Shown: positions 5,034 through 27,631 of the stretch, one piece after another
How positions within the stretch are numbered: position 1 is the first letter of the stretch
How the letters are laid out: each line of letters starts with the position of its first letter
Source of the DNA: Candidatus Nanoarchaeia archaeon
GTDB taxonomy: Archaea > Nanobdellota > Nanobdellia > Woesearchaeales > SM23-78
Direction: 5' to 3'
NCBI GenBank assembly: GCA_041479965.1
Contig: JBGOZE010000002.1
Location: forward strand, 1-47,237
DNA: 47,237 bases
Translations under genes and position numbers: made by a program
The notes under the pieces: generated by a model
Told to the model about the DNA's origin: nothing
The model's input: the letters and a program-made list of their open reading frames with translations, nothing else
Databases searched by the model: none

Positions 5034-5714
5034 ATGGCGCCTCCGCCCCCTATGAATCCGATGATTTTCAGTACAGAACTATTGTTTACAATAATAGCTG
5101 TGATATTCTGTTTTCTTATATACTTCAAGACCCGGGAGATCTATAAGCTCACCAAGTACGAAGGTATTAAGTATTTTAGAGGAGCGTTCCTGTTCTTCGG
5201 ATTATCCTATGTTCTTAGGTTCATCTTCAGCCTCATAAGGTTCACTGGGATTGCTTTTGACTTTTTTATTCCCAGAGAGATGTTTGCTCTACTATTCATA
5301 TTACCACTAGGATATTTCAGCACCATAGGCATATTATACCTGATATTCGGTTCTGTATGGAAGAGATTCAAGAGCAAAAAATTGCTCGTGATTGGGCATG
5401 TGATCGCGGTGCTCCTGTCAGTCATCTCCTTCCTGACCAGGTCCCACATAATACTGCTCTACCTGCAGACAGCTCTCCTGGTTATCGCAGCCACACTAAG
5501 CTTTTTTGTGCACAAGAAAGATGCTCTCAAGAAAGAGAAGAAGATAACAGGCATGAAGATGCTGTACCTCCTGATTTCTGCCTTGTGGCTCATCAACCTG
5601 TGGATAATAGACGAGAAGAGACCCTTCCCTCTGGAAGTAGAAATCTTTTTCCAAATCATTTCCCTTATTGTGTTTATTATTATTTACCATAAAGTATCCA
5701 AGTGGCTCAAATGA
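5034..5714 (+). CDS. polytopic membrane protein, function unknown
   Basis: 226 aa with about 6-7 hydrophobic helices. A TATA-rich stretch at 4990-5010 lies about 30 nt upstream of the ATG. Confidence 0.6.
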   Translation: MAPPPPMNPMIFSTELLFTIIAVIFCFLIYFKTREIYKLTKYEGIKYFRGAFLFFGLSYVLRFIFSLIRFTGIAFDFFIPREMFALLFILPLGYFSTIGILYLIFGSVWKRFKSKKLLVIGHVIAVLLSVISFLTRSHIILLYLQTALLVIAATLSFFVHKKDALKKEKKITGMKMLYLLISALWLINLWIIDEKRPFPLEVEIFFQIISLIVFIIIYHKVSKWLK

Positions 5715-5989
5715 ACAGCAAGAAAAGAGACAGGCTGGCAGTGATATTTGATATCCTAAAAATCATCAGGGACAAACATAATTCAATAAAGCCGACGCCG
5801 CTCATGAGATACTCCAACCTGTCATCAAGCAGCTTCTCAGAATACTACTCAGAGCTTATAGCCAAAGAGTTCGTTAAGGAGATAACTGACAAGAAAGGAA
5901 GAAAATATATCACTCTCACAGACAGAGGATTCAAATACCTTGAGAAGTACAACCTTATTCTAGGATTCATTGATGAGTTTGAATTATGA
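5711..5989 (+). CDS. small winged-helix DNA-binding protein (COG3432-like)
   Basis: MNSKKRDRLAVIFDILKII...KPTPLMRYSNLSSSSFSEYYSELIAKEFV...GRKYITLTDRGFKYL is the typical archaeal wHTH pattern. ATG at 5711 overlaps the upstream stop as ATGA. The track starts at GTG 5702. Confidence 0.65.
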   Translation: MNSKKRDRLAVIFDILKIIRDKHNSIKPTPLMRYSNLSSSSFSEYYSELIAKEFVKEITDKKGRKYITLTDRGFKYLEKYNLILGFIDEFEL

Positions 5990-6039
5990 TTCTCTGCCAA
6001 CTCACGTCTTGCAAGCCATCAGGCAGGAAATCTTATGCT

Positions 6040-6609
6040 TCACCTGAATATACGCAACAACGGGTTCGGCTGGCCCTGCTGCGTTTGCGTCCGGGCTGAA
6101 GGCGAAGTGCTCTGATAGCCAGTGATTATGCTGATCTTGCCCTCATTAAGCTCTTTCAAGAAAGCTTCATCAGGCTCAGTCAGCTTCACCTTATAAGAAG
6201 CGTCAATAGTAATCAGGTAAAATTTCTCAATGGCAGTATGAGAGTTGTCTGTGACTATTGGTTTTATTGGCTGCGCAGCAGCAAGAAGTCTCAATCCATT
6301 CCTTTCCAGCAATACAAAGTAAAGGCCTTGCTTTAGAAGCTCTGCCTTGAGCTCGATAACAGAAGGAAACCTGGCTCGCTGCACAGAGCCCTTTGCCTGA
6401 GGATTAGCGCCAGAATACTGGGCAGTTGAGATGCTCTTGCCAGTGATTAGCTTCTCAAGTCCTGTCCTGTCGCCAGTGTAATGATTAGCAAAATAGCCTG
6501 CTGTGCCAATTGCGAGAACTCCAACAGTCCACTTGACCCATCCTCTTAGCTCTTGCTTAGGCATCATGCCTTCAAGGCCAGAATCTGTTTTCTTAATAAA
6601 AAATCCCAT
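6040..6609 (-). CDS. N-terminally anchored extracytoplasmic protein, function unknown
   Basis: 189 aa with a single TM (WTVGVLAIGTAGYF) followed by a soluble domain. A TATA-like box on the complement of about 6645-6658. Confidence 0.5.
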   Translation of the reverse strand: MGFFIKKTDSGLEGMMPKQELRGWVKWTVGVLAIGTAGYFANHYTGDRTGLEKLITGKSISTAQYSGANPQAKGSVQRARFPSVIELKAELLKQGLYFVLLERNGLRLLAAAQPIKPIVTDNSHTAIEKFYLITIDASYKVKLTEPDEAFLKELNEGKISIITGYQSTSPSARTQTQQGQPNPLLRIFR

Positions 6610-6674
6610 AAATCGTCACCATCAATCAGAAAATGACAGTAAATGTATCCACTATAAAAAAGTTATGATTAAAA

Positions 6675-6717
6675 GCCTGCCCCCGGACGAGAGCTTTTCA
6701 CTCAAATCCCGATGGGC
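6675..6717 (-). repeat. copy A (most diverged) of the tRNA-Tyr 3'-end-like GC-rich element, with an arm shared with copy B
   Basis: Minus strand reads ...CATCGGGATTTGAGTGAAAAGCTCTCGTCCGGGGGCAGGCTTTT. The CCGGGGGC core and a T-run match the tRNA-Tyr 3' end. CA(C/T)TCAAATCCCGATGG matches copy B at 16/17 positions. Confidence 0.5.
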
Positions 6718-6745
6718 TTCCCTGCGGGTGACCACAAAATGACAA

Positions 6746-6756
6746 AATATATAAAC
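6746..6756 (+). promoter_or_regulatory. TATA box for the Fic gene (leaderless)
   Basis: AATATATAAAC is centred about 27 nt upstream of ATG 6778. Confidence 0.55.
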
Positions 6757-6777
6757 GTGGACACCTTATAATATATT

Positions 6778-7701
6778 ATGTTCATAGAAAAGCGGAGAGC
6801 CGGCAAGAGCATTAAGAATTATCTTGTTTATTCTTACAGGGAAAAGGACGAAGTAAAGAAAATCCGGCATTATCTCGGCTTAAACCTGACAAAAGAAGAG
6901 TTGCAAAAAGCTAAAGAAGAGGCTGAGCAGCAAATCAAGAGGGAATTAGAGGAACTTCGCACTGAAATATTCAATTTCTCGCTTACAAAGAACCAGTTGG
7001 CAAAGCTTAACAAGTTTGATAGGCAAATAAAAGTTCATCATTTACAGGGCTTTGAATGGAAGGCTTTCACAGAACAGTTCACCTACAACACCAACGCAAT
7101 AGAAGGCTCGAGCGCGCAACTGAATGAAGTCCCTGAAATCTTGCACAAGCAGAAAGCTGAGGGTAATGAGGAGCTTGAGACAAAAGGCGTTGCCAAGGCT
7201 GTTGATCTTATCAGAAACACAAGAGAAGAACTGTCTTTGGACTTGATTAAAAAGCTGCATAAGCTCTGTTTTGAAGGCTCAAAGCACTTTGCGGGGCAAT
7301 TCAGGACTGTTGAAGTAGTCATAAGAAATGGCAAAGGAAATGTTATTCACGCAGGAGTTCCTGTGGCCAAACTAAATGAAGCGCTAAAAGACCTTATCGA
7401 ATGGTACAAGAAGAACAATAATAAATTCAAGCCTCTAATTCTAGCTGCCATCATCCACAACCAGTTTGAGCACATTCATCCATTCCAGGACGGCAACGGA
7501 AGAGTTGGCAGGTTATTGCTTAATTTCGTGCTGCTCAAGAACAAGCATCCGCCAATAAACATATCGCTTGAAAACAGGGCAGAATACTATCATTCACTAC
7601 AAGAATACTCAAAAAACCAGAATTTAAGGCCAACAATAATGTTCTTAATAAAGCAATACAAGAAAACACTCAAGCAGGTGACTACAAAAAAGCATAAGTA
7701 A
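6778..7701 (+). CDS. fic: Fic-domain protein (AMPylase family), class II with N-terminal inhibitory motif
   Basis: The canonical Fic motif HPFQDGNGRVGR (aa 234-245, nt 7477-7512) matches HxFx(D/E)GNGRxxR. TNAIEG (aa 105-110, nt 7090-7107) matches the (S/T)xxxE(G/N) alpha-inh motif and lies upstream of the core. Confidence 0.9.
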   Translation: MFIEKRRAGKSIKNYLVYSYREKDEVKKIRHYLGLNLTKEELQKAKEEAEQQIKRELEELRTEIFNFSLTKNQLAKLNKFDRQIKVHHLQGFEWKAFTEQFTYNTNAIEGSSAQLNEVPEILHKQKAEGNEELETKGVAKAVDLIRNTREELSLDLIKKLHKLCFEGSKHFAGQFRTVEVVIRNGKGNVIHAGVPVAKLNEALKDLIEWYKKNNNKFKPLILAAIIHNQFEHIHPFQDGNGRVGRLLLNFVLLKNKHPPINISLENRAEYYHSLQEYSKNQNLRPTIMFLIKQYKKTLKQVTTKKHK

Positions 7702-7744
7702 GTAAATGTGGTCACCTAAAAGGCGAATTTTAATTCTAAAAAAA

Positions 7745-7811
7745 AGTATCCCCGCCCCCGGCAAAGAGTAATTTTGATACCTTGAGCAGGATTTCATTCA
7801 AATCCCGATGG
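7745..7811 (-). repeat. copy B of the tRNA-Tyr 3'-end-like element, with extended arm
   Basis: Plus strand reads AGTATCCCCGCCCCCGG. This is the complement of CCGGGGGCGGGGATACT, against CCGGGGGCGGGGACTACT at the real tRNA-Tyr 3' end. The next 30 nt match copy C at 23/30. Confidence 0.75.
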
Positions 7812-7917
7812 CTCTCGCATCCTAGAGACAGAAAACACAGGATTCCTGCCATTCTGAGTTAAAATTGACAGGATCTTTCATAAACCCTTATAAACAAACT
7901 TTGTTTCTTTATTTCCT

Positions 7918-8655
7918 ATGGCTCGTAATTTTGGGAGTGTGGTTAATGGCGTAATTTCAGAGGCAGATATTCTTCTGGAGATAATTGATGCCAGGGCTGT
8001 TGCTCAAACCAGGAACCTGGAAATTGAGGATAAGGTTCAAAGGTCAGGTAAAACATTGATTTACGTCCTTAATAAGTGCGATCTTGCTGATAAGAGTGAG
8101 CTTGATAGGATCAAGAAAACACTCTCCCCTTCTGTGTTTATTTCTTGCAAAGATTATCATGGCATGAATCTTCTTAGGGAGAGAATAATTATTGAGGCTA
8201 AGAGAAGAGGTTTTGAAAAGCCAATAGTTGGAGTTTTAGGCTATCCTAACATGGGCAAGAGCTCTGTAATAAATGCTCTTAGCGGGACAGGAAAAGCCAG
8301 AACATCAAGCACTTCGGGGTTTACTCGCGGTAAGCAATATGTTACTTCACGACACTTCTATCTTATTGATACCCCGGGAGTTATTCCTTACGGTGAGAAT
8401 GATGTTGTGAAAAACACAATGACTGGAATAAAAACCGGGTCAAAGGATCCTGAAACAGATCTTCTTCTGATAATGCAATCGCATCCAGGGCTTATAGAAT
8501 CGCATTACAATCTTCCTGTGGAAGATGATAAAGAAGAAACTCTTGAGAAAATAGCCATTAAAATGAATTGCGTGAGAAAAGGAAACCTGCCAGACACAGT
8601 AAGAGCAGCAAGAACAATCATTAGTTGGCTCAGAGAAGGAAAGATCAGGATATGA
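7918..8655 (+). CDS. circularly permuted GTPase (YlqF/RbgA/YawG-like ribosome-biogenesis GTPase)
   Basis: G4 NKCD (YVLNKCDLAD) comes before G1 GYPNMGKSS and G3 DTPG, which is the cpGTPase order. TATA CTTATAAAC at 7887-7895 lies about 27 nt upstream of the ATG. Confidence 0.85.
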   Translation: MARNFGSVVNGVISEADILLEIIDARAVAQTRNLEIEDKVQRSGKTLIYVLNKCDLADKSELDRIKKTLSPSVFISCKDYHGMNLLRERIIIEAKRRGFEKPIVGVLGYPNMGKSSVINALSGTGKARTSSTSGFTRGKQYVTSRHFYLIDTPGVIPYGENDVVKNTMTGIKTGSKDPETDLLLIMQSHPGLIESHYNLPVEDDKEETLEKIAIKMNCVRKGNLPDTVRAARTIISWLREGKIRI

Positions 8656-8749
8656 TTAACCCAGAAGAGCCAATAGAATTAATGCTTTTAGATAATATTT
8701 AAATCGTTTTTCAGCAATCTTTATATAATTCGTTGTTTAGCTGTTGGTC

Positions 8750-9064
8750 ATGGCAGGTAGGTGTTCTGGTTGTGGTATCTGTTGCAGCCTATTCATGATT
8801 AATTTGTCTGAGGAGGAGTACAAGTCTAAGAAATTCAGGACTCAGTTTGCGAGGTTTGGACTAATTCGTGATTTTATTGAGGCTGAAATGTGCGGCGCTA
8901 ACATTCTTGAGCAAAAAAAGGATGGCAGCTGCGTTTATCTTAAGGATGGCAAATGCTCTATCCATGAGTCAAGGCCAAAGGCTTGCAGAGCATTCTTTTG
9001 CACGTCAAAAAATAAAGCGTTTAAAAAGATGATTGATGATATTAATGAAAGGAAGAATGCTTAA
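8750..9064 (+). CDS. YkgJ-family (UPF0153) cysteine-cluster protein
   Basis: N-terminal CSGCGICC (CxxCxxCC) and C-terminal DGKCSIHESRPKACRAFFC. TATA CTTTATATAA at 8719-8728 lies about 26 nt upstream of ATG 8750. The track starts at TTG 8744. Confidence 0.75.
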   Translation: MAGRCSGCGICCSLFMINLSEEEYKSKKFRTQFARFGLIRDFIEAEMCGANILEQKKDGSCVYLKDGKCSIHESRPKACRAFFCTSKNKAFKKMIDDINERKNA

Positions 9065-9162
9065 TGAAGACCTCCATCCCAATAGACATCCTGAAGCCCA
9101 GCTCTCCCCCATTGGATACCAGGAGTTAAGAAAAATAATTAATCAGGACTTGAGTGAAAATA

Positions 9163-9210
9163 AGTAGCCCCCGCCCCCGGAACAGAGCACTTTTGATACT
9201 GTTAGCAGGA
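9163..9210 (-). repeat. copy C of the tRNA-Tyr 3'-end-like element, with extended arm
   Basis: Plus strand reads AGTAGCCCCCGCCCCCGG followed by AACAGAGCACTTTTGATACTGTTAGCAGGA, which is homologous to copy B. It lies immediately 3' of the minus-strand gene ending at 9228. Confidence 0.75.
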
Positions 9211-9227
9211 ACATTTGCCATTTTGCA

Positions 9228-10046
9228 TCACCTATTATAAAATGGATTATCTCGCCATTTGGGCCTGTAGCTTGGTTCCAAAATTTCTTTCTTGTGAATT
9301 ACAGGTCCTAACACAAAAATATGACCGGTATCTTGGTTAACGTAGTTCTTGCCGTCCACGAGATCAGAATTAAATTTGAAGCTTTTGAGCCAGCAGGTCC
9401 GCACTAAAGCCTTCGCATCTTTTTGTTCAGCTAATGCATTCAGGATATAATTTTCCATTAAGAACTCCTCAGTAATATTTTCTATGCCTGAATCACTAAA
9501 CATCTTCATATTCCCATGAAATTCTCTTTCTGTTCTCGCAAAATGTTTTCTTGCTATTTTTCCTTCCCAAGTTTCTAGAGTGGGGGGATTTGCAGTTTGT
9601 ACAACTAAATGCCCGTGTTCATAATCTTTACGTCCTATTAATTCAATTCCGCTATAGAGTATGTGGAGAACTCTCTCATCATTAGCAATGGCATCAACAG
9701 AATCCTTATTCCTCATGAAATAATTGCCTTTAGTTACCCATGCTCCTAATTCATAGCATGCTTCTTCAGGATTATTAAAAACAGGGTCTAAATCGGCAGG
9801 AGGGATATGCACCATGACTCCATCATCATCCAAGGTATAGACTCGGCTATTAGGCACCCAGCCACTGCCTTCCCTAATCTTTTTCTTCAATTCCTTATCC
9901 TCAACAACCCTCCTGGCTTTCGTTACATCTGCTACTTCGAGAGGTTTCAAACCAAGGTAATTAACTTCTTTAATACAATTTAATAACTCCTTCCCTTCTC
10001 TTCCTGGAATTATCTTAATTCTCTGAAGCTCATTGTCTGAAATCAT
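9228..10046 (-). CDS. hypothetical protein (P2), distant tandem paralogue of the upstream gene
   Basis: Start taken at the internal ATG at 10046 (MISDNELQRIKII...). The longer track ORF overlaps P1. It shares a (G/N)(E/D)DER(A/V) block and similar overall length and spacing with P1. No family recognised. Confidence 0.55.
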   Translation of the reverse strand: MISDNELQRIKIIPGREGKELLNCIKEVNYLGLKPLEVADVTKARRVVEDKELKKKIREGSGWVPNSRVYTLDDDGVMVHIPPADLDPVFNNPEEACYELGAWVTKGNYFMRNKDSVDAIANDERVLHILYSGIELIGRKDYEHGHLVVQTANPPTLETWEGKIARKHFARTEREFHGNMKMFSDSGIENITEEFLMENYILNALAEQKDAKALVRTCWLKSFKFNSDLVDGKNYVNQDTGHIFVLGPVIHKKEILEPSYRPKWRDNPFYNR

Positions 10047-10878
10047 TTTTTTGCGCACCACCTTCAGCAGGCTCACGATGCAATCCGCGAATCCTGTAAC
10101 CAACTCCTGCGCCCATGCTGTCGCCGCTGATGTAGGAAAGAGAACTGCGCCCACCAAACGAGAGCCCACTAAGCAAGAGCTGATGCGCATAGGGTCTTGG
10201 CTGCTTATCGATTAATTCGTCGCTTGCAAAAATCATATCAATAATCAGTTCAGGAGTTACTTTTTTATAGCTCCCGTATATTAACCGCATTTCTGCCATG
10301 CTTTCCAAGAATAGCCCATAATTCTTGGCTTGGTCCTGGTATAGCCACACTGCTCTTTCATCCTCGCCAAGCCGATTGGCTGGCACTCTAGATATATCGT
10401 TCAATATAAGATAGTTATCTTTGCCAATCTGCTCTAAATAGGCGTCGACATTGAAGTTTTCAGGCAGATAGCATTGATCAATTGCCACTTCATAGCAGCC
10501 ATAATCACCAGGGTCCTCCATCACTAATGACTTCCTGAGCGCAATCCTCCTATTCTCTTTTTTAGGAATTAATAGGCTTCCCTCGCGCACAAACGAGCCG
10601 TCGTGTAATAGGGTGCTGGACTTTGCCGCCTTGATTCTTGCATACGCTAAATCTCTTAATGAAATTACCTCATCACACTCCTTCATTATTGCCTCTAATG
10701 AGCTTTTGAAATCAGGATGTTCACAGTAAAAGATAGTTCCTAATCCATCAATGTGTGCTTCTTTTTTGGCATATCTGGACGGCTCCTGGCGCAGCGGCGG
10801 ATCACCATATCCTTCATAAGTTAACCTATCATTATCCTGCCATCGTTTTAACAACTCCTTATACGTTTGTCTTGCCAT
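10030..10878 (-). CDS. hypothetical protein (P1)
   Basis: 282 aa ORF. A TATA-like ATATTTAAATG on the complement of 10920-10932. No family recognised. Confidence 0.55.
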   Translation of the reverse strand: MARQTYKELLKRWQDNDRLTYEGYGDPPLRQEPSRYAKKEAHIDGLGTIFYCEHPDFKSSLEAIMKECDEVISLRDLAYARIKAAKSSTLLHDGSFVREGSLLIPKKENRRIALRKSLVMEDPGDYGCYEVAIDQCYLPENFNVDAYLEQIGKDNYLILNDISRVPANRLGEDERAVWLYQDQAKNYGLFLESMAEMRLIYGSYKKVTPELIIDMIFASDELIDKQPRPYAHQLLLSGLSFGGRSSLSYISGDSMGAGVGYRIRGLHREPAEGGAQKNDFRQ

Positions 10879-11079
10879 ATTTCATTGCCCCAAAAATCAT
10901 GTAGAGGAATCTTCCTGAGCATTTAAATATTGCCTTTGAAGGGTACTGTGCAATTAAGTTGTCACAAAGGTTTATCCTGTAGTTAGTCTTTCGTATTTCT
11001 TATATGAGGAACAAGGAACCTGGATTCTGCATCCTCGGCGTTCCAATCGTACCAAATTTCTTCCTTAATAATTTCGTAT

Positions 11080-11946
11080 TTATTTTCTGCGATGTTTAAG
11101 CAGTCTTCTTTGTTTCCAGCTCAATCCAGGGATCTTAGAAGATAATAATCTATACTTCGGATCTTCAATTGTATCTGCAAGCTGAACTATTCGGTCCGGG
11201 GTTATACCAGGCATATGACGGGCACTTTCATATTTATATTTATCAGATGTTACTTTCAATAACAGTTCCCATCTCTTTCCAACATCTATACCAGTACTAT
11301 TACAAGCAGCACCGAATATATATTGATCATCTTTCATGCTCGATGCAATCCGAAATTTCTGGTCAGAATCAAAATGTGGCACATAATTCTTAGGTGGAAA
11401 ATCAATAAGAGACTGCAATTTAATTTCATCAGATGCTATGCTTATCGCAATTTCTGCTCGCTGATCAAGAGTTATATTTGTCAACTCCCGAGCGGCACGG
11501 ACCTTATATTCATCAGATTTTATGTTTGATACAAGCTGAAATCTCCAGTCAGTATTTGCATATGGCGTATAACAAGCAACAGCGAATATATATTCATCAG
11601 GTAAGCTTGATACTAGTTGATATATGTGTGTAAAACTTAAACTTTTCACTTCACGAGCAATAATACACTTCGATGCATCAGATGTTATGCGTGATGCAAG
11701 TTCAAATCTCTGGTCAGCAGTTAGGTTTGGCAAATCAGCAGCAGCATGATATAAAAACCAATCTGAATAATAATCAGGATCATAAGAATTACATTCTCTG
11801 ATTTTTTTCAGATGTTCATCAGTTATCCTGTCCTCTGGTTTTAGAGATAACTCCCTCCGACAATATGTAACCAAGGCCTGAGGCGGATTCAGTTCACGGA
11901 CATCTTTCCATCTTATTACAATATCTTCGAGTAAAGCTTTAGCCAT
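11080..11946 (-). CDS. tandem-repeat (about 30-36 aa units) predicted alpha-helical protein (P3)
   Basis: Recurring unit [LI]TxDQRFxLxSxIxSDxYKxxAAR, for example LTADQRFELASRITSD, NTDWRFQLVSNIKSDEYKVRAAR, ITLDQRAEIAISIASDEIK, DSDQKFRIASSMKDDQY, VGKRWELLLKVTSDKYKYESAR and ITPDRIVQLADTIEDPKY. Start taken at MAKALLEDIV. Confidence 0.55.
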   Translation of the reverse strand: MAKALLEDIVIRWKDVRELNPPQALVTYCRRELSLKPEDRITDEHLKKIRECNSYDPDYYSDWFLYHAAADLPNLTADQRFELASRITSDASKCIIAREVKSLSFTHIYQLVSSLPDEYIFAVACYTPYANTDWRFQLVSNIKSDEYKVRAARELTNITLDQRAEIAISIASDEIKLQSLIDFPPKNYVPHFDSDQKFRIASSMKDDQYIFGAACNSTGIDVGKRWELLLKVTSDKYKYESARHMPGITPDRIVQLADTIEDPKYRLLSSKIPGLSWKQRRLLKHRRK

Positions 11947-12153
11947 GAAATGAAGAAAGATCGACGGCTTTATAAGCATTTCTTTAATACTTACTTTATA
12001 ATAGTTACTTATAAGATTTATGATTATAATACAAAAATGAAAGGCTTAAAAAGACACCATTAGCCAAATTGAACTTTTCCAACTACAGGTATTTATTCAT
12101 ATCAACTTAAGGACACAGTACTCTTCGGAGTAGTTATATATTAAGAATAGGAA

Positions 12154-12171
12154 AGTAGTCCCCGCCCCCTG
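12154..12171 (-). repeat. copy D of the tRNA-Tyr 3'-end-like element (core only)
   Basis: Plus strand AGTAGTCCCCGCCCCCTG differs from the tRNA copy AGTAGTCCCCGCCCCCGG at 1 nt. It lies about 30 nt 3' of the minus-strand gene ending at 12203. Confidence 0.75.
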
Positions 12172-12202
12172 ACTTTTATGTATAATCAAATTCCGCGAAG
12201 AA

Positions 12203-12574
12203 TCATAAGCTTCTTGCAGAAACAGGAACCCCAACTCTGCCTGCGGCGATATGCTCAGCTTTAGGCTGCTCTTCTGTCTCAGATTCAACAACGCTCCAGT
12301 AGAAATCCATGAATTTTTGGACTTTCTGGTTTTTAACATTAAGCTTGAACATCTGTGCTCTTCCCACTTTCCGTGTCATAATTATCCACTTATTATTAAC
12401 TAATTCTTTCTTTAACTGCTTCATGCAAGGATAACTTATTACAGCATGCCTGGCGATATCTTTGAGTGAATAGTCAAAATCCTGGGCGACTATTAAGAAA
12501 TCAAGCACCTTGTTCTTAGGCGTAAATCCTTCTCTTTTCAAAAATAATGATTTAGGTTCCATCTTATACAACAT
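12203..12574 (-). CDS. winged-helix-like small protein with acidic C-terminal tail
   Basis: 123 aa. ...NKVLDFLIVAQDFDYSLKDIARHAVISYPCMKQLKKELVNNKWIIMTRKVGRAQMFKLN has an HTH plus wing pattern. A TATA-like box lies 20-26 nt upstream. Confidence 0.5.
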   Translation of the reverse strand: MLYKMEPKSLFLKREGFTPKNKVLDFLIVAQDFDYSLKDIARHAVISYPCMKQLKKELVNNKWIIMTRKVGRAQMFKLNVKNQKVQKFMDFYWSVVESETEEQPKAEHIAAGRVGVPVSARSL

Positions 12575-12682
12575 TAAGTGATAATAACAAGTATTTAAAG
12601 GTTTCCATTTTATACCATAAGGGATATTTATATAACCCCCAATAAGAAAAGCATATAAATAAGCCCATGCAATTCCTTAATT

Positions 12683-12979
12683 GTGAAAATACACAAAAGC
12701 GATTATGTCAAGTATAGCAGATTCTTAGTTAGAAAGCTCAATAAGAGCGGCTGCTGGGGAGCGGGCTCAATGTATGAAGACAACCTTCTCGATGGTCTGC
12801 CAGATAAATCCATCGGCAGAAAAGTCCTTGACGCCCTTATCAAGCAAAGAATAATTATCGGAAAAAAGAAGAAATACGGGCATAAATATTATTTGAACAC
12901 GGAAAGAATGGACAAGGCAAAAGAAATAGTGAAAGAGCAAGGAAACAGGTCAATCATACTAATACTTCTGATGATATAA
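12683..12979 (+). CDS. small basic protein, function unknown
   Basis: 98 aa ORF with a GTG start about 25 nt downstream of TATA CATATAAATAAG (12651-12662). Divergent from the gene at 12203-12574. Confidence 0.4.
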   Translation: MKIHKSDYVKYSRFLVRKLNKSGCWGAGSMYEDNLLDGLPDKSIGRKVLDALIKQRIIIGKKKKYGHKYYLNTERMDKAKEIVKEQGNRSIILILLMI

Positions 12980-12981
12980 AA

Positions 12982-13000
12982 AGTAGTCCCCACCCCCGAG
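12982..13000 (-). repeat. copy E of the tRNA-Tyr 3'-end-like element
   Basis: Plus strand AGTAGTCCCCACCCCCGAG has 3 mismatches to the tRNA copy. It lies about 150 nt 3' of the giant minus-strand gene. Confidence 0.65.
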
Positions 13001-13150
13001 CTAGAGTGTTTGGCTCAAGTCCGGACAAATAAGGCATTCCATGGCAGAAACACTATGTTTTAAGGCATACTGAGTTTAAAATTATTTCTATTAATCTACT
13101 GCAAAGATGCTCAACCCTCAAATAGGGGGTTAGGATTATACTTATCTAAT

Positions 13151-16100
13151 TTAGTTAGCGTTCGATGTCGCTACGCAAGTAGCTTTTAATGTGCGCCCGC
13201 TGCCTGTGAACTTGACTTTGCAGTCATTCGGGAATATATTACGTTCATTATTCTGCCAATCAGCGGTTACGCATTTTGCCATTCCTAAGGCGTCTCGTGT
13301 GCTCGTAATTTTTATGTTACCACAGTAAGTTGCTGCTGTGCAGGGAGACTCATCAGTCTTGCCATCACAATCATTGTCCTTGTTATCACAGGTCTCTGTT
13401 TTCGCCCCTGCGAATGGATTGCAAGTGTCTCCTCCCCATACTCCTGCTGTGCAGGTCTTAATGCCTTTGTTGCCTGAGCATATTCCTTTTCCGCAAGTTG
13501 TTGCTTTAGTAAGGCTTTCATCAGTTAAGCCGTCACAGTCATTGTCCTTGTTATCACATATCTCGGTTTTTGGTGTTCCTGCAACACAGCTGTTTTTCTC
13601 AACTCCACTTACGCAGGTCTTTTGCCCTGTTTTTGCGCATACTCCCAGCCCGCAGTTGGTTGCTGTTGGGACATAACCTTCATCTGTTTGCCCGTTGCAG
13701 TTATTATCTAGGCCGTCACAATTATTGTCAGTTAGTGCTGGTGTTCCTGCTACGCATGCTGTTTCTTGTCCTGCTACGCATGTTGATGCTGCATTTGATA
13801 ATGCACATACTCCTGGCAGGAAGCAGCTTGTTATTGCTACGTAATCTTCATCTGCTGTTCCGCTGCAATCTTCATCTAATCCATTGCAGTTAGCGTCGTT
13901 TGCTGCTGGTGTTCCAGTCTTACATGCTGTTTCTACTCCTGCTGTGCAGCTTGATGCTACGTTTCCTGCAGCGCAAACTCCTGGTAAGAAGCAGCTTGTT
14001 ACTGGTACATAGCCTTCATCTACCGCATTGTTGCAGTTGTTGTCTATTCCATCGCAATTATTGTCAGTTGCTGCTGGTGTTCCTGCTACGCATGAGTCTA
14101 CGATTCCGCCGCTTACGCATGATGTTGTTCCTGCTGCTGTGCATGCTCCAACTCCACAAGTTGTTGGTAAGCTTACATAATCTTCATCAGCTACTCCGGA
14201 GCAATCATCATCTATACCATCACAAATGGCGTCAGTTGCTCCAGGATGTACTGCTGCGTTTGCGTCATTGCAGTCAGTAGCATCTGCTACATATCCTGTT
14301 GGTGCTATGCAAGCTAGTTGTGTTACAAGAACATTTCCGTAAGTATCACTGTCTAAGTCTTGGTAAAAGGTGTTCTGTACTCCGTTATCTACTGTTCCGT
14401 CACAGTCATCATCAACATTGTTGCATGTTTCTGTGGTTGCTCCAGCGAATGGATCACAAGTGTTATCTCCCCATGTTCCTGCTGTGCATGTTTCGATTCC
14501 AACATTGCTTGAGCAAGCTCCTAGTCCGCAACTGGTTGATCTTGTTAGGCTTTCGTCAATGTTTCCGTCGCAATTGTCATCAAGGTTATTGCAAGTCTCA
14601 GTTGCTCCTGGATGAACATCAGCGTTGTTATCGTCGCAATCGCCAGCTGCGACAGTATAACCATCGCCATCTGCATCAATGGGCTCGCACTTGTATATAT
14701 TCACTGCTAAGCTTCCTGAGTTATCACCATACCATCCTTCAGTTGGGATTCCAGTGTTTGAATCTCCGTCAAACACTCTGAACTTAACAGCTGAACCTGC
14801 TCCAATCATGCTGTTAGCGTAGATGTGACTTGAGTAATATGTTCCCCAATCAACAAATGCATCATTAACCTGCAAGTCAAATGAGCCTTCACCTAGGAAG
14901 TAAGGATCGATGTCGTATCCATCTGTAAATGTTGCCCAGTTGTCATTGCTGATGTATTCTGCATCAGCAGCATTGTTGCTGTTCTGCCAGGTTCCTAATG
15001 CTACAAATAGGTAGGTTTTGCCGTTTTCCAAGGCAGCGCTGCTTGCACCTAAGACGTCATTGGCTGGGACAGTAATTGTCTCAACAAAGGACTTTCCAGT
15101 GCCATCAGGGCATGAGCCATCGCCAGTGCAGCCCTCATCTTCTGTTCCGTCACAATCATCATCTGCAAGGTTGCAGATTTCTATTGGTGTTGTAGGAGTT
15201 AGTGCGTTACACACAGTTCCTAACGTATCTAAAGTGCAGACATACACTCCTGTATTGTAAGCACCGCAGTCATTAGTTCCGCTGTTGCAAGATTCTCCGA
15301 CATTGAATCCGTTGTCGACTAATCCGTCGCAATCATCATCCAAGCCGTTACATGCTTCTGCTGTTTCGGTTCCTCCTATGCAGCTGTCTACTTCAGAGCC
15401 ACCTACGCATGTCATTGAACCTGTGCTTGCGCATACTCCAACACCACATGTAGTTGCATCATTGAGCCAATCCTCATCCCATCCATCATTTGTGGCTGAG
15501 TTGCAGTCATTGTCTATTCCGTCACATAAGTCGAAAATGTTGCCTGTGTTGTCTGATGAGCAATCCGGTAGGCCGCCAGTGCAAGTGAATGTTCCTTCCT
15601 TGCATAAGTCAGTGTCAGCTCCATCACATGCAGTGCCGTGCCATGACGCATCAACTCCATCTGGTGAGTTTACGTCACAATCGTCATCAACATTGTTGCA
15701 CTCTTCTGGTGCGAATGGATGAGTTGTTGGTACTGCGTCATCGCAGTCAGTATTGTCTGCTATGTATCCTGCTGGTGGTGCGCATGCTAGTTGTGAAACC
15801 TCATTATCTCCATAACCATCACTATCTGCATCGGCATAGAAGTTTATCTTGACACCTTCGTCAACACCAGTATCGCAGTCATTATCTAATCCATCACATA
15901 CTTCTGCTGCGTTTGGATGTACAAACTCATTGAAGTCATCACAATCTCCACATGTTGATGCATAGCCATCTCCATCAAGATCATTTCCATCATGGCTTAT
16001 TTCTCCTGCTGAAGTGCAAGTATTAGCATCTTCATCACAAGCTGATGTGAAAGCAGCTCTGAGGTCCCACGTGTAGTCATTATTATCTGGGTCATTGAAA

Positions 16101-19100
16101 CAGTCTGCGATTTCAGGCATATTAAATCCTGTGCAGCTCATTGCAGTCTTCTGAACACATAAACCACCACCGTTGCACTGGTCTTCTGCTGAGCAGAAGT
16201 TACCGTCATCACATGTTGTTGTGGAAGGCGCGAATCCATTTGCTGGGCACAGATCGCTTACTCCGTCACAACTCTCAGCAACATCACAGTCTCCTGCTGA
16301 TGCTCTGCAAACAGTTGTTGAAGGCTCATTATTAGTTAAGCAGCTTCCTGCTCCGTCACAAGCATCTGGTTTTGTGCAGGCAGTGCTAGCTGAGCTCCCA
16401 CAGCTAGTTCCTACTGTTTTGAACCCATTATCTGAACATACTCCTGCTGTGCATTTATCTTGATTTATGCATTCTGAGCCTGCATCACCGCAGTTGTTGC
16501 CATCAGTTGAGCAGACACTCCAACCACCAGCAGAACAAGTTTGAGTTCCAGCGCACACGCCTGAGCCGCAAGCTTGAGTTATGCTTTCATCAACAGAACC
16601 GTTACAATCATTATCCTTATTATCACAAGTTAATTCATCTAGTTCATAATAGGCAACAGATGAATAATCATCAATCCATCCATTTGAACCATCACAATGT
16701 TGAATAGAACCTAAACAAACACCATCCTGCATTGTATTTAATCCTGGAGTCAAACCATTGTCAGCTGAACCATCACAATCATTGTCATTTCCGTCACATA
16801 CTTCTGTTGCTGGCCCTACAGCAGTGCATCCTGTCCAACCACCAAGGTCTGTGCATGTTTCTGTCCCAAAGGCGCATTCTCCAATATCAACACCACACGG
16901 CTGGGATAAGGATTCAGAACCATCCAAGACTCCGTCACAATCATCATCAAAACCATTACAAGATTCTACATTGTTGCCTGTCGTGTCTGAACAAACTTGA
17001 TCACCAATACACTGATATGTTCCTTCCTGACATAAATCAGTATCAACACCATCACAAGCAGCACCAAACCATGCTTCGCTAGCACCGTCAGCAGTTGCAC
17101 CATTACAATCATCATCAAAACCATTACAGATCTCAGATGCACCAGGATGAATTGCAGCATTACCATCATTACAATCACCGTTATTTGCTACGTATCCTGC
17201 TGGCGCAACGCATGCTAGTTGTGTTACAAGAACATTTCCGAAGCCATCTGAGTCTGAGTCTTGGTAGAATGTTGTTTGGACTCCTTCATCAGTTTGTCCG
17301 TCGCAGTTATCATCTAATCCGTTGCAGGTTTCTGCTAAAGGCTCATAATTTGATGAACTGTCAAGCCAGATTTTCTCCCAGGGCTTTGCTGGATTTACAA
17401 GACATTCCTTAACATTATCTGAACATGCTCCTTGTATATTATCAGAAGGAATTGTTCCTAGGCCATCATCTATCTGTCCATTACAGTTATCATCTTTTGC
17501 GTTACATGTTTCTGGTAATGCTTTTCTTCCTGGAACATCAGCAGGAGTAGTAAAAGTCCAATAGCAGTTACAATTTGCAGCACTCAAACTACCGCCATCA
17601 TCAATTTTTCCATTACAATCATCATCTACTCCGTTGCACGTGACGTCATGACCGGCCGGGTTAACATTTACATCATTATCGTTGCAGTCATCATCATTTG
17701 AAACATATCCGGCAGGCTGGCTTACTGAATAAAGAGAATCGCTTGGGTCTCCGTAAGTATCGCCATCTCCATCATGATACCAAAGGGACTCGGTCTGGCA
17801 AGTTGCAGAGCATCCATCTGCAGAATTAGTATTGCCATCGTCGCATTGCTCACCAGATTCGATAAAGCCATTGCCGCATGAAGGTGCATCACAAGCGTCT
17901 CCAATTCCATCTCCATCCAAGTCAGCTTGGTCAGCATTAGAGACTAGCTGGCAATTATCTGCGCCATCTCCTACACCATCGCCATCATCATCAGAATCAC
18001 AAACATCTCCTTGTGCATCTCCATCAGTATCTAATTGATCTGCATTAGGATTCATAGGGCAATTATCCACGGCATTAGCAATTCCATCGCCATCAGTATC
18101 GCCATCGCAATCATCACCAATATTATCACTATCAATATCAGACTGTGTTGGATTGCCTATGAAATGACAATTGTCGTCGCAATTGGTGATCTGCAAGTGA
18201 TCACAGAGGTTGTTACCGATAATTCCGTCGCCATCACCGCTGTCTAAGACTCCGTCATTATCGTCGTCAGGGTCAACGCAGTCAGCTATTCCGTCTGGTT
18301 CATTGTCAGGGAATCCTTCATCAGTCTGTCCATCACAATCATTGTCTACGCCATCACAAACTTCTTCTGTTGGGACACAGCTTGCAGCATGCTGACATCC
18401 TAATGCTATATCACAGGTATCTGTTGTTTGTATATCATTATCATCACAATTCACTTGCGTATAGCTGCAGCTTATCATATTATTATTATCTATTGTACAT
18501 GCATCAGCATCATCACAACTTATTATATTAAACATACATCCTATTCCTGGAACGCATGAATCAGCAGTATTAGCATTGTTATCATTACACACAACATTTG
18601 TGTGTGTACAGACATTATTTACATTTGCATCTGTAGTGCATACATTATTATCATTACAATTTGTATAAACGCATCCTATCGAATTATCACATGTGTCTAT
18701 TGTGTCTGGATTGTTATCAAAACAACCTACTGGCAAACACATGCAAAAAGTTCCCGTCCAAGCACAATTTATACATGCATTAGGTGAAGGACAAGTACTA
18801 GCGGTATGCACGCATCCTGTTAAAGGATTGCAACTGTCTGATGTTCCAGGATTATTGTCGTCGCAGTTTATAGGTGTATTCATGCATCCAAATGGTCCCA
18901 GGTTAGCATCTGTAGTGCATGCATTGCCATCATCACAATTTGTTGGTGTATAGCAGTATATATTGCCTGTTGTCGGATGGTTTTGGCATGTTCCTAATCC
19001 ATTGTTGCACGAGGTATCTATGGCCATAGGAAAATGCTGGCATGTACCGAAGCAGGCATCAGTTGTGCATTCATTCCCGTCAGGACTGCAAGGACCACTA

Positions 19101-19300
19101 ACAGGCAAGTATCCCAAACATGTGTCGCCAATCCATCCGATGCATTCAGATCCACATTCTGCCTTTACAGCTGTTGCCAATAACATCAATCCAAATATAA
19201 AAACTAATATAAGATATGCTTTCTTCATTTTATTTCCCTCCAAACGTTTTAATGAGCGTGATATATTCTTATTATAGATATTACCAGTGTTTGTTTTCAT
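13151..19300 (-). CDS. giant secreted cysteine-rich repeat protein (about 2,025-2,049 aa), adhesin-like
   Basis: One uninterrupted ORF.
- Signal peptide [23 protein letters not shown] if translation starts at ATG 19228. Both ATG 19300 and ATG 19228 have a GGAGG about 8 nt upstream.
- N-terminal CxDxNxCTxDxC repeats.
- TSP3-like Ca-binding repeats ([35 protein letters not shown]).
- One [27 protein letters not shown] myxococcal-type repeat.
- More than 20 MopE-like motifs (DCNDxxxxxxPGAxExCNGxDDDCDG).
- One Cys-free domain of about 140 aa. Confidence 0.9.
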
Positions 19301-19605
19301 TTTTACTTTCCTCCGTTTGCTAAATAGAACTCTTTTTGTTTGTGGGTAGAACTCTTAGAAATTATAGTCGTACGAATATTATGCATATTCGGTTGCATTA
19401 ATTACCCCCAGATGACACGCCTTTCACTATATTATAGGCGCGCGGAAGATTAGGAATTACCATACATATTTAAACTTAATCTTTTTTATCCTCTGATGAA
19501 TAGTTAATTTTTTGGGTCGCATTGAAAGATATTTTGGTGAGTTTCCTCACAGCATAGGCAAATTTAAAAAAGCGGTGTTTTGTCGTCGATAAATTAGAAA
19601 AGTAG

Positions 19606-19822
19606 TCCCCGCCCCCGGACTCGAATTTCCCAAGCTTGCGAATGCTTTCTTAGTTCGGAGGACTTAACGAAGTTAATGTCCTCCTTAAGTTTTTCCCTTA
19701 AGGCTTTCGCAAAGGCTTACCAGGAACCTCTCGGGCACTGCTGACCGCATTTCATTCATACTCTTGCGAGTTTGTCTTGCGGCATCTACAGCCAAGTGCT
19801 CAAACCGTTAAGCTAGGCGGGG
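19606..19822 (-). tRNA. tRNA-Tyr(GTA) with two introns (about 50 nt after the anticodon loop; about 94 nt between T-stem and T-loop, position 53/54)
   Basis: Minus strand reads CCCCGCC-TA-GCTT-AACGGTTT-GAGC-A-CTTGG-CTGTAGA-[50 nt]-CCGAG-AGGTT-CCTGG-[94 nt]-TTCGAGT-CCGGG-GGCGGGG-A. The spliced product is exactly 73 nt with all stems paired. The C1:G72 pair is the archaeal/eukaryal Tyr identity pair. TATA (complement of 19847-19857) lies about 30 nt upstream. Confidence 0.85.
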
Positions 19823-19900: not shown

Positions 19901-20758
19901 TTATTCTGTCTTGTACGTCAGGTTGACGCTGTTGGAGTAGATTGTCCTCTCCTTGCCTTTTCCTGTGTCAAAGGTCACTTTGGCGTCTGGAAGCCTGATG
20001 CCTCCGATGAGGGTAAGCTTGCTTTTCACCCTGTAGGATATGATTCTTTCTTCGTAGGGTTCCAAAGCGTCCATCTCCCATCTCGGCACTGTGCCTCTCT
20101 TGCCTTTGCCTATGCTTACTGGCTCCATGCTTCCCAGGTGAGTTGTCCTGTCTATCTCTGCGATGTGAGGCACGAAGTCTATCACTCGTAGGTTATGCAC
20201 TGGCTTCCTGGCCCTGTTCTTGAGGTAAAGCCTTACCTTCACTTCACTAAGGCCGTCCTTGGTCTGTCCCATTGGCTCTGCGTTCTTCATTATCACTATC
20301 GGGCTCCTCCAGACGTAGTAGAATATCACTGCCAATATCAATAGGATTATCACCAGCACGAGCATCCTGTAATCAGTGACCATGCTTCCGGCAAGGGTTT
20401 CCTGCGGGTCCAGGGTTTGGCGTATCACATAGTAGCTCTTGCCATCAAGCCCTTTCTCTTTCACAGCATCTGGCGTGAACTTGGTGAAGAGCCTCTTGAT
20501 GAGGTTCACAGAAAAGCTCTTCTCTGCCGTGGCTGGCTGGTTGCCGTTGTTGTAGATGGTGAAGCGCTCTTCTGTCCTGAATAAGAAGGTGTTTTTGGAT
20601 GATTTCTCCTTGAGGTCAGAGTAGCCTTGCACGTCGAATTCTGCTGATGCTTCTGCTACGTTCTTATCATTATAGTACAGTTGGAGTGTCAGGGTCTTGG
20701 TTCCTGGCTTGGTGAGCGGGTCCACAGAGAAAAGCACCTCGTTGGTCTTCTCTTCCAA
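19901..20758 (-). CDS. C-terminal half of a COG1470/CARDB-like surface protein (TM plus beta-sandwich domain); probably not an independent gene
   Basis: The track start is a TTG with no SD or TATA. It is in the same frame as the ORF at 20795-21355, separated only by one TAG (20795-20797) and 12 sense codons. The first internal ATG is more than 120 codons in. Confidence 0.5.
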   Translation of the reverse strand: MEEKTNEVLFSVDPLTKPGTKTLTLQLYYNDKNVAEASAEFDVQGYSDLKEKSSKNTFLFRTEERFTIYNNGNQPATAEKSFSVNLIKRLFTKFTPDAVKEKGLDGKSYYVIRQTLDPQETLAGSMVTDYRMLVLVIILLILAVIFYYVWRSPIVIMKNAEPMGQTKDGLSEVKVRLYLKNRARKPVHNLRVIDFVPHIAEIDRTTHLGSMEPVSIGKGKRGTVPRWEMDALEPYEERIISYRVKSKLTLIGGIRLPDAKVTFDTGKGKERTIYSNSVNLTYKTE

Positions 20759-20794
20759 TGGCAGTAGCTTGGTGGTGTATTCCTTGGAGAATAT

Positions 20795-21355
20795 CTATCC
20801 GTTCAGCACGACCTTGATATTGTCCAGCTCTCTTGGGTTCCTATTCTTAAGTATGAGGAGCACAGAGACTTTCTGCCTCGGGTCTATGGCGTTGTCAATT
20901 GATATTACTGGCGTAACAGTAGGGATGTATTCTCCAGGCCCAAGGTCAGGTGAGACCACGTAGATGGCGAATTTCTCCCTTTCTTCATAGTAGAAGCCTG
21001 TCTTCTCAGACTTAATCTTGACAGGTATGAAGTAGGTCTTCATCTCATCCACTGTGAGCTTGGGGTTGAATTCGAGAAGGAATTTCATTTCTCCATGGGC
21101 ATTGATGTAGCTTGATTGTGGGTCTATGTTGAGGACCCAGTTCACGTCTCTAGTGCTTATGGTGAAGTAATCATCATAGTCTGCTGTGTTGCTGATTATG
21201 AGCTCGAAATAGGCTGTCTCTTCCTTGGTGATGGTGTTATTGAGGACATTCACAGAATAGGCAAACGCTGACACTTGCGCAGCTGTAGAAATAATGATTA
21301 TCAATGCAGTCAAAAGTAAGATAGATAACCTGTATGCGGCTTTATTACCCACCAT
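20795..21355 (-). CDS. N-terminal half (signal peptide plus beta-sandwich domains) of the same surface protein, ended by an in-frame TAG
   Basis: Signal peptide MVGNKAAYRLSILLLTALIIIISTAAQVSA, then FELIISNTADYDDYF and LILKNRNPRELDNIKVVLNG strands. The ORF stops in the middle of a domain. Confidence 0.55.
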   Translation of the reverse strand: MVGNKAAYRLSILLLTALIIIISTAAQVSAFAYSVNVLNNTITKEETAYFELIISNTADYDDYFTISTRDVNWVLNIDPQSSYINAHGEMKFLLEFNPKLTVDEMKTYFIPVKIKSEKTGFYYEEREKFAIYVVSPDLGPGEYIPTVTPVISIDNAIDPRQKVSVLLILKNRNPRELDNIKVVLNG

Positions 21356-21935: not shown

Positions 21936-22143
21936 TGGGGCCGCGGAGACTTTCGGGATTCTTGCACTTTTGGTAATTCGGAGGACTTAACGAAGTTAAT
22001 GTCCTCCTTAATTGCTTTTTACCAGATTTTTTGCAAAAATCTGTTCGAACTCCGGTTACTACCACCCCAAGGTAGAATGATAGTTGCTTCCAAGCAACCT
22101 CAAAAACAGAGGTTTTTGTTGGACCAAGCTACACTACGGCCCC
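21936..22143 (-). tRNA. tRNA-Pro(GGG) with two non-canonical introns (about 38 nt in the D-loop; about 94 nt in the T-loop near position 59/60)
   Basis: Minus strand reads GGGGCCG-TA-GTGT-AGCTTGGTCC-[intron]-(C)TA-TCAT-T-CTACC-TTGGGGT-GGTAG-TAAC-CGGAG-TTCGAA-[intron]-T-CTCCG-CGGCCCC-A. The acceptor, anticodon and T stems are all Watson-Crick. G37 fits Pro. TATA (complement of 22169-22180) lies about 32 nt upstream. The exact D-loop intron borders are ambiguous. Confidence 0.75.
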
Positions 22144-24315: not shown

Positions 24316-24455
24316 TCACACCCACCCTCGGATTGTGTTTTTAGGTATATCAACCTATTGTTGATTATTATACGCAAGAGAATTACTTGTTAGAGTGGTA
24401 TTTAAATCTTTTGATGAAAGGCGAGAATGTGTGAAAATTGAAAACTGAAGAAAAA

Positions 24456-25424: not shown

Positions 25425-25505
25425 TTTATCCTGTTTATGTCAGAACTAGTATATAAATCTTTCGTTTATTTAACCACTAAAGAGTGACTACAAACCGAAA
25501 GGTTT

Positions 25506-27575: not shown

Positions 27576-27631
27576 AATTAAGAGGGAAAAAAAATGGTTA
27601 TAAATAATTTGTTGTTTTGGGAATAGCATCC

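Follow-up and report, generated by a model that had tools for sequence, protein, structure and literature searches.

What has gathered the genes that lie behind a tyrosine tRNA gene in an archaeal contig, and by what machinery, is the question raised by the 47,237-nucleotide stretch analysed here (the window), a contig of a Woesearchaeota metagenome-assembled genome (MAG; JBGOZE010000002.1). An earlier note on this DNA had observed six same-orientation copies of the tRNA-Tyr 3' end dividing 13 kb into segments, and had explained them by repeated site-specific integration into one tRNA gene or, alternatively, by an integron-like cassette array. We compared the window with about 20 related contigs (designated here by L numbers): 21 loci from Joint Genome Institute (JGI) metagenomes were collected by alignment of the 484-aa protein family encoded upstream of the tRNA, and more by exact-protein look-ups. 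The comparison favors repeated integration: the 13 kb 3' of tRNA-Tyr are likely to be a hotspot built by site-specific recombination, with remnants of attachment (att) sites between its segments. This reading is supported by a clean segment indel between two relatives (L027 and L028), by the confinement of the repeats to tRNA-Tyr, and by integrases of related lineages.

The tRNA-Tyr(GTA) gene is genuine; it occupies positions 19606-19822 of the minus strand and contains two introns. Read on that strand, the acceptor sequence CCCCGCC and the D-arm GCTT/GAGC are followed by the anticodon stem CTTGG, the loop CTGTAGA, and a 50-nt insertion; then come the 3' strand of the anticodon stem, the variable loop, and the 5' strand of the T-stem (CCGAG-AGGTT-CCTGG), a 94-nt insertion, and TTCGAGT-CCGGG-GGCGGGG-A. 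Exon 1 (19822-19785) is separated by intron 1 in the anticodon loop (50 nt, 19784-19735) from exon 2 (19734-19720), and the latter by intron 2 at T-arm position 53/54 (94 nt, 19719-19626) from exon 3 (19625-19606), all on the minus strand. ARAGORN names the 73-mer spliced in silico tRNA-Tyr(GTA) and, with only the first insertion retained, reports tRNA-Tyr with a 50-nt intron. On the unspliced window it finds only a tRNA-Arg, and Rfam at the gathering threshold finds the same tRNA-Arg and an intron-bearing tRNA at 265-381, neither program having anything at 19.6-19.8 kb; both overlook the gene because of its two introns. The spliced tRNA folds canonically, its exons are conserved in relatives, in which the two-intron gene is also found, and the gene stands intact at the proximal junction of the array.

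The repeated core consists of the last 13 nt of tRNA-Tyr and a 7-nt trailer (CCGGGGGCGGGGACTACTTT, comprising the T-stem 3' strand, acceptor 3' strand, discriminator, and trailer). With up to three mismatches allowed, CCGGGGGCGGGGACTACTTT has four matches in the window, all on the minus strand (19599-19618, 12980-12999, 12152-12171, and 9161-9180), and none in 100 shuffles; GGGGGCGGGGA, with at most one mismatch, has five, again all minus, against 0.14 expected, the extra one being at 7749-7759. Six cores in total, that of the tRNA and the displaced copies c1-c5, lie on the minus strand and 3' of tRNA-Tyr (0-0.14 expected by chance), and the remaining 34 kb of the window contain no copy.

The attL-type core in the tRNA gene, found by the pattern scans, is CCGGGGGCGGGGACTACTTT itself (19599-19618, minus). 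Behind it lies a conserved trailer (19567-19598, minus; TTCTAATTTATCGACGACAAAACACC, with CGACGACAAAA at 19578-19588), which in relatives follows either tRNA-Tyr or a displaced core. The displaced copies, all on the minus strand, are c1 (12980-12999, TCGGGGGTGGGGACTACTTT; 12980-13082 together with an upstream arm of about 85 nt that includes CCGGACTTGAG), c2 (12152-12171, CAGGGGGCGGGGACTACTTT; 12152-12202 with a 31-nt spacer that reaches the stop codon of a winged helix-turn-helix (wHTH) gene), c3 (9161-9180; 9142-9227 with its arm), c4 (7742-7761, with a one-base deletion; 7742-7864 with an arm of about 100 nt), and the decayed c5 (6667-6686, CCGGGGGCAGGCTTTT; 6667-6715 with its arm). Including flanks, c2 is identical to the tRNA end in 25 of 27 nt, while the degenerate c5 is recognised mainly by its arm CATCGGGATTTGAGTGAAAAGCTCT, which is like the arms of other copies and matches those of c4 and of L030. 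The coordinates given in the earlier note were off by 1-3 nt for four copies, and its most distal copy (6675-6686) is the tRNA-proximal part of c5. Its further statements hold: all copies are intergenic in the gene map of the window (c1 abuts the stop codon of the open reading frame (ORF) at 12683-12979), all six have the orientation of the tRNA and lie on its 3' side, and 3-8 T follow directly behind each. The description of the copies as some 20 nt of tRNA end is right as to their reality but too short as to their extent, since most cores have a conserved upstream arm, which reaches about 110 nt at most and contains TTTCTGC...C(C/G)GGA(C/T)TTGAG. The 11-mer CCGGACTTGAG of this arm resembles the reverse complement of the tRNA-Tyr T-loop and T-stem (TTCGAGTCCGG in the window, TTCAAGTCCGG in L056), and it recurs in direct orientation 12-13 nt past the c3 core and past the core in L025 and L056; at c3 this downstream element (CTCAAGTCCTG, 9154-9144, minus) resembles the post-core arm of the integrase-bearing L025 and L056.

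Two other interpretations of the copies were rejected. They do not appear to be 3' halves of split tRNAs or functional mini-helices, as no 5' acceptor strand CCCCGCC is found nearby and the T-arm-like stems are imperfect; nor is the arm a conserved micro-ORF, the reading frames varying among copies. By its sequence, the arm looks more like the decayed 3' end of a wHTH gene; a protein-level check did not confirm this.

The same arrangement recurs in related genomes. The gene 5' of tRNA-Tyr belongs to the 484-aa family, which has no Pfam match and whose named members are mostly from Woesearchaeota, and in most related loci the same tRNA-Tyr stands behind it. Past the tRNA these relatives carry zero to four extra cores, always downstream and on the tRNA strand: one in L016, L028, and L029, two in L024, L027, L043, and L044, and four in L030, two of them degenerate; none is present in L020, L026, L036, and L039 or in the approximately 2 kb of L041 left past the tRNA. 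A core profile matches only downstream of tRNA-Tyr and on its strand (window, L016, L018-L038, and L039-L044), the lone exception, with E=31, being the 5' acceptor strand of the tRNA itself. In these loci the motif is confined to the tRNA-Tyr 3' side and is not the genome-wide intergenic element for which the earlier note had allowed. Outside these loci, a scan of 185,579 species-representative genomes, the source MAG not being among them, gave 12 core matches, all judged to be due to chance (11 are bacterial, and the twelfth lies in an actin-like coding region of a Njordarchaeum contig). The core pattern has no match in IMG/VR, and the six matches there to arm plus core, of which five come from contigs rich in GC (59-74%) and one falls within an ORF of 607 aa, were also judged to be due to chance.

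Turnover of individual segments is seen between close relatives. L027 and L028, with flanks 97.5-99.6% identical, differ by one clean 1,155-bp segment indel; a stretch of 26 nt, alignable on either side of the indel, is the core, and the junction in L028 passes from the left of the tRNA through the core into the right flank of the second core of L027. The same pair shows a further indel of about 113 nt just upstream of tRNA-Tyr (L027:11390-11503 versus L028:915-922) that is not core-bounded. Over larger distances both order and content change. The window reads giant/E2/E3/E4/E5 (segments described below), L027 reads X/E2, with two small ORFs between its cores, L028 has E2, and L030 reads E2/SH3/NUDIX-rSAM-NDK-rSAM/E4 (rSAM, radical SAM), whereas L016 holds a HEPN/nucleotidyltransferase pair and L024 two other segments with peptidase-like and other ORFs. 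Thus units are present or absent between related genomes with breakpoints inside the repeat, and the gene order is not invariant, L016, L024, L027, L028, and L030 all differing. By blastn, E2 is common to the window, L027, L028, and L030 at array positions 2, 2, 1, and 1, respectively, and E4 is common to the window and L030, core-bounded in both. E4 of the window is 91.75% identical to that of L030 over 1,200 nt, the flanking genes being 71-77% identical, and E2 of L030 is 89.8% identical to that of L027, against flanks of 67-72% over long alignments; this excess of identity, 92% and 90% versus 67-77%, suggests an exchange of segments between lineages.

The window itself has no integrase, as the earlier note had stated; in related lineages integrases are found at the same site. 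Tyrosine integrase genes lie 60 nt (L025) and 460 nt (L036) past the tRNA-Tyr core. The L025 ORF (416 aa) contains a Phage_integrase domain and a zinc ribbon, and the L036 protein (280 aa) scores 107 bits on PF00589. In L056 and L057 an integrase 92% identical to that of L025 is followed by restriction-modification and SNF2/PLD genes. It is preceded in both (L056:6787-7349, L057:214-776) by a copy of tRNA-Tyr intron 2, the 3' exon, and the core, at a distance of 60 nt in L056; no tRNA 5' exon was found anywhere in these two loci, not even in the 560 nt that separate the core from the gene before it, and the genes upstream of the integrase are chromosomal (PTH2, a class II aminoacyl-tRNA synthetase, and RimK). 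This fragment could be a rearranged or split tRNA-Tyr, or else an att site bearing an intron; a review of archaeal tyrosine recombinases (PMC8371274) cites a proposal according to which tRNA introns are carried by attP sites as their vectors.

The L025-type integrase has 226 homologues, all with PF00589, many of them on contigs of 5-9 kb. One such contig, L058 (8,227 bp), has identical 30-nt ends, i.e., a terminal direct repeat, and for this reason we read it as a circular assembly; it is apparently a circular element. Its core CAGGGGGCGGGGACTTA lies 80 nt upstream of an integrase 54% identical to that of L025, with no tRNA 5' part, and is bracketed by a 17-nt imperfect inverted repeat (GGGGTTGTGTGCAAAAC / GTTTTGCTATAAACCCC; fold z = -2.6), so that the region may be regarded as attP-like by its sequence. 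The trailer motif CGACGACAAAA, which stands behind the tRNA core in the window and several relatives, is found inverted just upstream of this attP-like core. Integrases of the L025 type (about 400 aa with a C-terminal zinc ribbon) are 22-28% identical to integrases of archaeal viruses and plasmids, namely a pleomorphic virus of Archaeoglobus, a Methanomicrobiales virus, Halorubrum viruses, and haloarchaeal plasmids; neither the L025 nor the L036 integrase has relatives in IMG/VR. A split integrase of the SSV type was rejected: tblastn finds no int fragments beside any core, and in L025, L056, and L058 the core stands 60-80 nt upstream of an intact int gene. With attP upstream of the gene and not within it, the system is therefore not of the SSV type. 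Several relatives also carry a XerA-like recombinase gene (271-276 aa, Phage_int_SAM_4 plus Phage_integrase) 3-6 kb beyond the last core (L024:12271-13086, L027:15818-16648, L028:4069-4899, and L043:17537-18352), with no counterpart in the window; it may be a chromosomal Xer recombinase or linked to the array.

The array could have arisen as follows. A tyrosine integrase would splice circular DNAs into the 3' end of the gene, the attP center of these DNAs matching the last 13-14 nt of tRNA-Tyr and a few trailer bases. At every insertion the tRNA end would be rebuilt from the incoming copy, and the earlier core, with all that lies behind it, would be displaced further downstream, leaving a series of co-oriented cores that separate the segments. 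The five segments of the window, E1-E5, would then be att-flanked units without an integrase, either decayed elements or cargo-only cassettes, and the integrase for this array either acts in trans or has been lost. Since no segment keeps an integrase, they could be moved, deleted, or exchanged only by an integrase in trans or by recombination between the repeats. We infer that the L025/L058-type family made this array and that the segments of the window are still mobile.

The segments are small (0.8-6.6 kb), and several consist of single genes. E1 (13000-19598, minus) encodes, at 13151-19300, a secreted repeat protein of 2,049 aa; it has TSP3 repeats as well as 14 MopE/Cu-binding motifs and is limited among the loci examined to this population (the window and L014). 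E2 (12172-12979) is a divergent pair of small genes, encoding proteins of 98 aa (12683-12979, plus) and 123 aa (wHTH-like; 12203-12574, minus). E3 (9181-12151, minus; GC content 0.389) contains three ORFs without a family match (11080-11979, 10030-10878, and 9228-10190), none with a Pfam family; the first of them, 299 aa in length, is internally repetitive, with four diverged direct repeats of about 79 nt at 11233-11746 and no family match. E4 (7762-9160, plus) encodes a YlqF-like circularly permuted GTPase (7918-8655) and a CxxCxxCC protein (8744-9064), and E5 (6687-7741, plus) a Fic protein (6778-7701) recognised by the SoFic defence model. Gene orientation is mixed, mainly minus in E1-E3, plus in E4 and E5, and divergent in E2. 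The distal boundary (5702-6609) is formed by a 189-aa ORF (6040-6609, minus), which varies between lineages, and an HTH_45 gene (5702-5989, plus); in L026 and L030 the conserved chromosome (HTH_45, a membrane protein, ABC/CARDB) resumes directly past the array. The GC content of E2-E5, for which the earlier note had proposed a comparison with the flanks, is 0.36-0.40 versus 0.45 in both flanks. Proteins of E2 and E3 and the 189-aa ORF have no family in PHROGs, NCBIfam, or PADLOC, and exact-protein look-ups of Fic and HTH_45 for alternative strain contexts gave no match. Each of E1-E5 is bounded by cores and none contains PF00589; they have att on both sides and no recombination genes, as cis-mobilizable elements (CIMEs) do.

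Several observations weigh against the origin of the array by repeated integration. No integrase or fragment of one is present in the window by Pfam, for which precomputed marks were used at 22-31 kb, or by tblastn with two types of integrase from relatives. For the window's own segments neither a circle junction nor an empty site was seen; L014, the one contig that is nearly identical (99.98%), has the same array as far as it reaches. L058 has no assigned host and is a related element rather than one of the segments. Repeats of 16-26 nt could also support a RadA-type deletion, and for this reason the L027/L028 indel alone is no proof of integrase action. In addition, the E2 gene pair is conserved in distant Woesearchaeota with neither core nor tRNA-Tyr nearby (L051 and L053), and the GTPase of E4 adjoins tRNA-Tyr without a distal core in L026, so that some segments may be trapped or duplicated chromosomal DNA rather than imports. 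The cargo had been called typically accessory, which does not apply to all of it, the wHTH pair being widely conserved and the GTPase standing without a core in L026.

Built on repeated integration, a more far-reaching proposal would be that Woesearchaeota run a tRNA-anchored cassette platform, in which integrase-less cassettes ending in an arm of about 50-110 nt and a 14-20-nt core are served by an integrase in trans; we put it forward tentatively, as a possibility to which we lean less than to the opposite. Such cassettes may be captured, re-ordered, and passed between lineages by the integrase of about 400 aa with a zinc ribbon from circles of about 8 kb. If true, this would be a functional analogue of integrons with duplex, tRNA-derived att sites, which as a by-product could move T-arm introns between tRNA genes.

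Among the rival explanations, the one that survives best, though we think it improbable, dispenses with the integrase after one or a few ancient integrations: unequal crossing-over or RadA-dependent recombination would duplicate a unit made of a gene 3' end and a core, and homologous recombination between arms would swap the cargo. The arms of c1, c4, c5, and several relatives do resemble a decayed wHTH 3' end together with the c2 spacer (TGTTTCTGC...CGGA.TTTGA), which suggests that a single chromosomal unit was duplicated; the E2 pair is an ancestral feature of the lineage, the window lacks an integrase, and exchange of modules between tandem integrated elements by homologous recombination has been documented in archaea (PMC8371274). 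However, the order of E2 relative to the slot running from trailer to arm is inverted between L030 and the window or L027, which insertion at cores explains better; the same ends of 50-110 nt bound unrelated cargo in five lineages; and the lineage has integrases and a free attP with the same core. Homologous recombination between the repeats may nevertheless have done part of the reshuffling.

The integron-like platform offered as an alternative in the earlier note, in which an integrase encoded elsewhere captures promoterless cassettes through a folded, single-stranded attC-like arm plus core and the tRNA end serves as attI, is very unlikely. Small integrase-less segments of 0.8-6.6 kb, each ending in a conserved arm and core, would fit it, as would a mini-hairpin of 3-4 bp just 5' of the core, in which double changes from GAG/CTC to TAG/CTA are seen; this one stem was the only one with paired changes when attC-like folding of the cores was considered and rejected. 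Also in its favor, a score of 135 bits is reached by the L036 integrase on the NCBIfam 'XerA / integron integrase' model, below the cut-off of 220. Folded as single-stranded DNA, however, arm plus core is no more stable than its shuffles (z from -1.5 to +0.8 for seven copies), the consensus structure has an energy of only -5 kcal/mol, and genes face both ways relative to the cores. No integrase gene stands beside the array, the position 5' of the tRNA being taken by the 484-aa family; and attP of L058, adjacent to its own integrase, is a double-stranded-type inverted repeat around the core.

Finally, we give hardly any credence to the view that the motif, rather than being a scar of recombination, works as an RNA or as a signal in transcription that several genes reuse (for instance a terminator, or a 3' processing tag resembling a tRNA): a T-run stands behind every copy, c1, c2, and c3 lie 30-150 nt past stop codons of minus-strand genes, and a simple terminator scan weakly flags the tRNA end, c3, and c4, but c4 has plus-strand genes on both sides and c5 is upstream of a minus-strand gene, so that core orientation tracks the tRNA and not the neighboring genes, no copy exists in the other 34 kb of the window or upstream of tRNA-Tyr in any relative, no Rfam family matches, and segments appear and vanish together with the copies.

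As an array of att-bounded units at a tRNA gene, the locus belongs to a type well known in bacteria and archaea, found here in a little-studied lineage of archaea with tiny cells. Closest in architecture to repeated integration as we propose it are several described systems. In the tycheposon islands of Prochlorococcus (Hackl et al., bioRxiv 10.1101/2020.12.28.424599), as here, integration occurs into the 3' part of a tRNA, neighbors are separated by nothing but a partial tRNA copy, newcomers push older elements inward, and degenerate remnants with extra partial tRNAs accompany adaptive or defence cargo; the present array differs in its DPANN host, in an identity segment of 14-20 nt versus about 40, in the lack of an integrase or replication module in its five segments of 0.8-6.6 kb, and in a target tRNA with two introns. 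Tandem elements in archaeal tRNA genes (a survey of Thaumarchaeota, PMC6563490, and the review PMC8371274) share with it a tyrosine recombinase, tRNA targets, some of them with introns, attL and attR as direct repeats, repeated use of one site to form arrays, and loss of the integrase after integration, whereas the integrase considered here has about 400 aa, a C-terminal zinc ribbon, and only 22-28% identity to integrases of the archaeal viruses and plasmids named above, and attP lies upstream of int. The streptococcal CIMEs, which accrete with integrative and conjugative (ICE) or integrative and mobilizable (IME) elements, have likewise lost their integration genes, retain att on both sides, accumulate one behind another where their target gene has its 3' end, and can be mobilised through the integrase of a related element (PMC5704250); in contrast, our host is archaeal, conjugation genes are absent, several units are single genes, and mobilisation in trans is inferred. 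Integrons also hold an ordered array of small integrase-less units, each with a conserved recombination site, at one fixed anchor, but here there is no adjacent intI, the sites form no stable hairpins, genes lie in both orientations, a tRNA 3' end serves as the anchor, and L058 carries its own integrase with a duplex-type attP.

A literature search combining Woesearchaeota, integrase, and tRNA found no description of such an array, and the 2021 review of archaeal tyrosine recombinases (PMC8371274) does not mention DPANN. The distinctiveness of the locus is raised slightly by its very small integrase-less units with conserved ends, by the evidence for their recent exchange, and by the position of the core 7 nt past a polymorphic intron. 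DPANN genomes are tiny and their gene gain is poorly documented, and the locus provides a concrete, comparable example of a variable region. Its boundaries are known (tRNA-Tyr on one side and the HTH_45/ABC block on the other), near-identical contigs show turnover in it, individual segments are exchanged between lineages, and it comes with a candidate integrase family and a free element. Moreover, tRNAs with several introns escape standard tRNA finders, and with them the integration sites that they anchor.

The T-arm intron is itself variable. Its length differs among close relatives: the window has about 94 nt, L016 and L025 have about 95-96 nt, and L039-L042 about 30 nt. The intron is also found in tRNA-Tyr of L030, L032-L034, L019/L020, and L022, and is absent from that of L023, L024, L026, L027, L028, L031, L036, and L038. 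Core arrays are seen whether the intron is present or not. Because the att core begins 7 nt past this polymorphic intron, the locus can serve to study the mutual influence of mobile elements and tRNA introns, a long-standing question.

A second tRNA-like gene, overlooked by ARAGORN and Rfam, is located at 21937-22143 on the minus strand. It has the acceptor GGGGCCG/CGGCCCC and a T-arm of the form CGGAG-TTCGAA / insertion / T-CTCCG, and the insertion in its T-loop contains the hairpin of tRNA-Tyr intron 2 (TTAAGGAGGACATTAACTTCGTTAAGTCCTCC, 38 nt, 95% identical to the L016 counterpart). With this insertion removed, ARAGORN calls a tRNA, the anticodon assignment of which is unstable (Gly or Pro); the gene probably has a further non-canonical intron. 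The intron-containing tRNA at 265-381 (minus strand, 117 nt) scores 45 bits in Rfam and is missed by ARAGORN.

Two features upstream of tRNA-Tyr complete the picture of the window. The block at 22181-28873 (minus strand) contains a radical SAM gene, a 707-aa SMC-like ATPase (128 bits on the Lamassu LmuB model), and three ORFs of unknown function; an SMC-like ATPase with two or three ORFs of unknown function behind it recurs in L016, L039, L041, and L043, accompanied by the radical SAM gene in L039 alone, and in view of this recurrence we place the block outside the variable array. The 285-aa and 186-aa ORFs (19901-21355, minus) correspond to the single 484-aa gene of all relatives: at about position 20783, compared with the 99.98% identical L014, a G-to-T change turns GAG into TAG, which is either a nonsense polymorphism or an assembly error.

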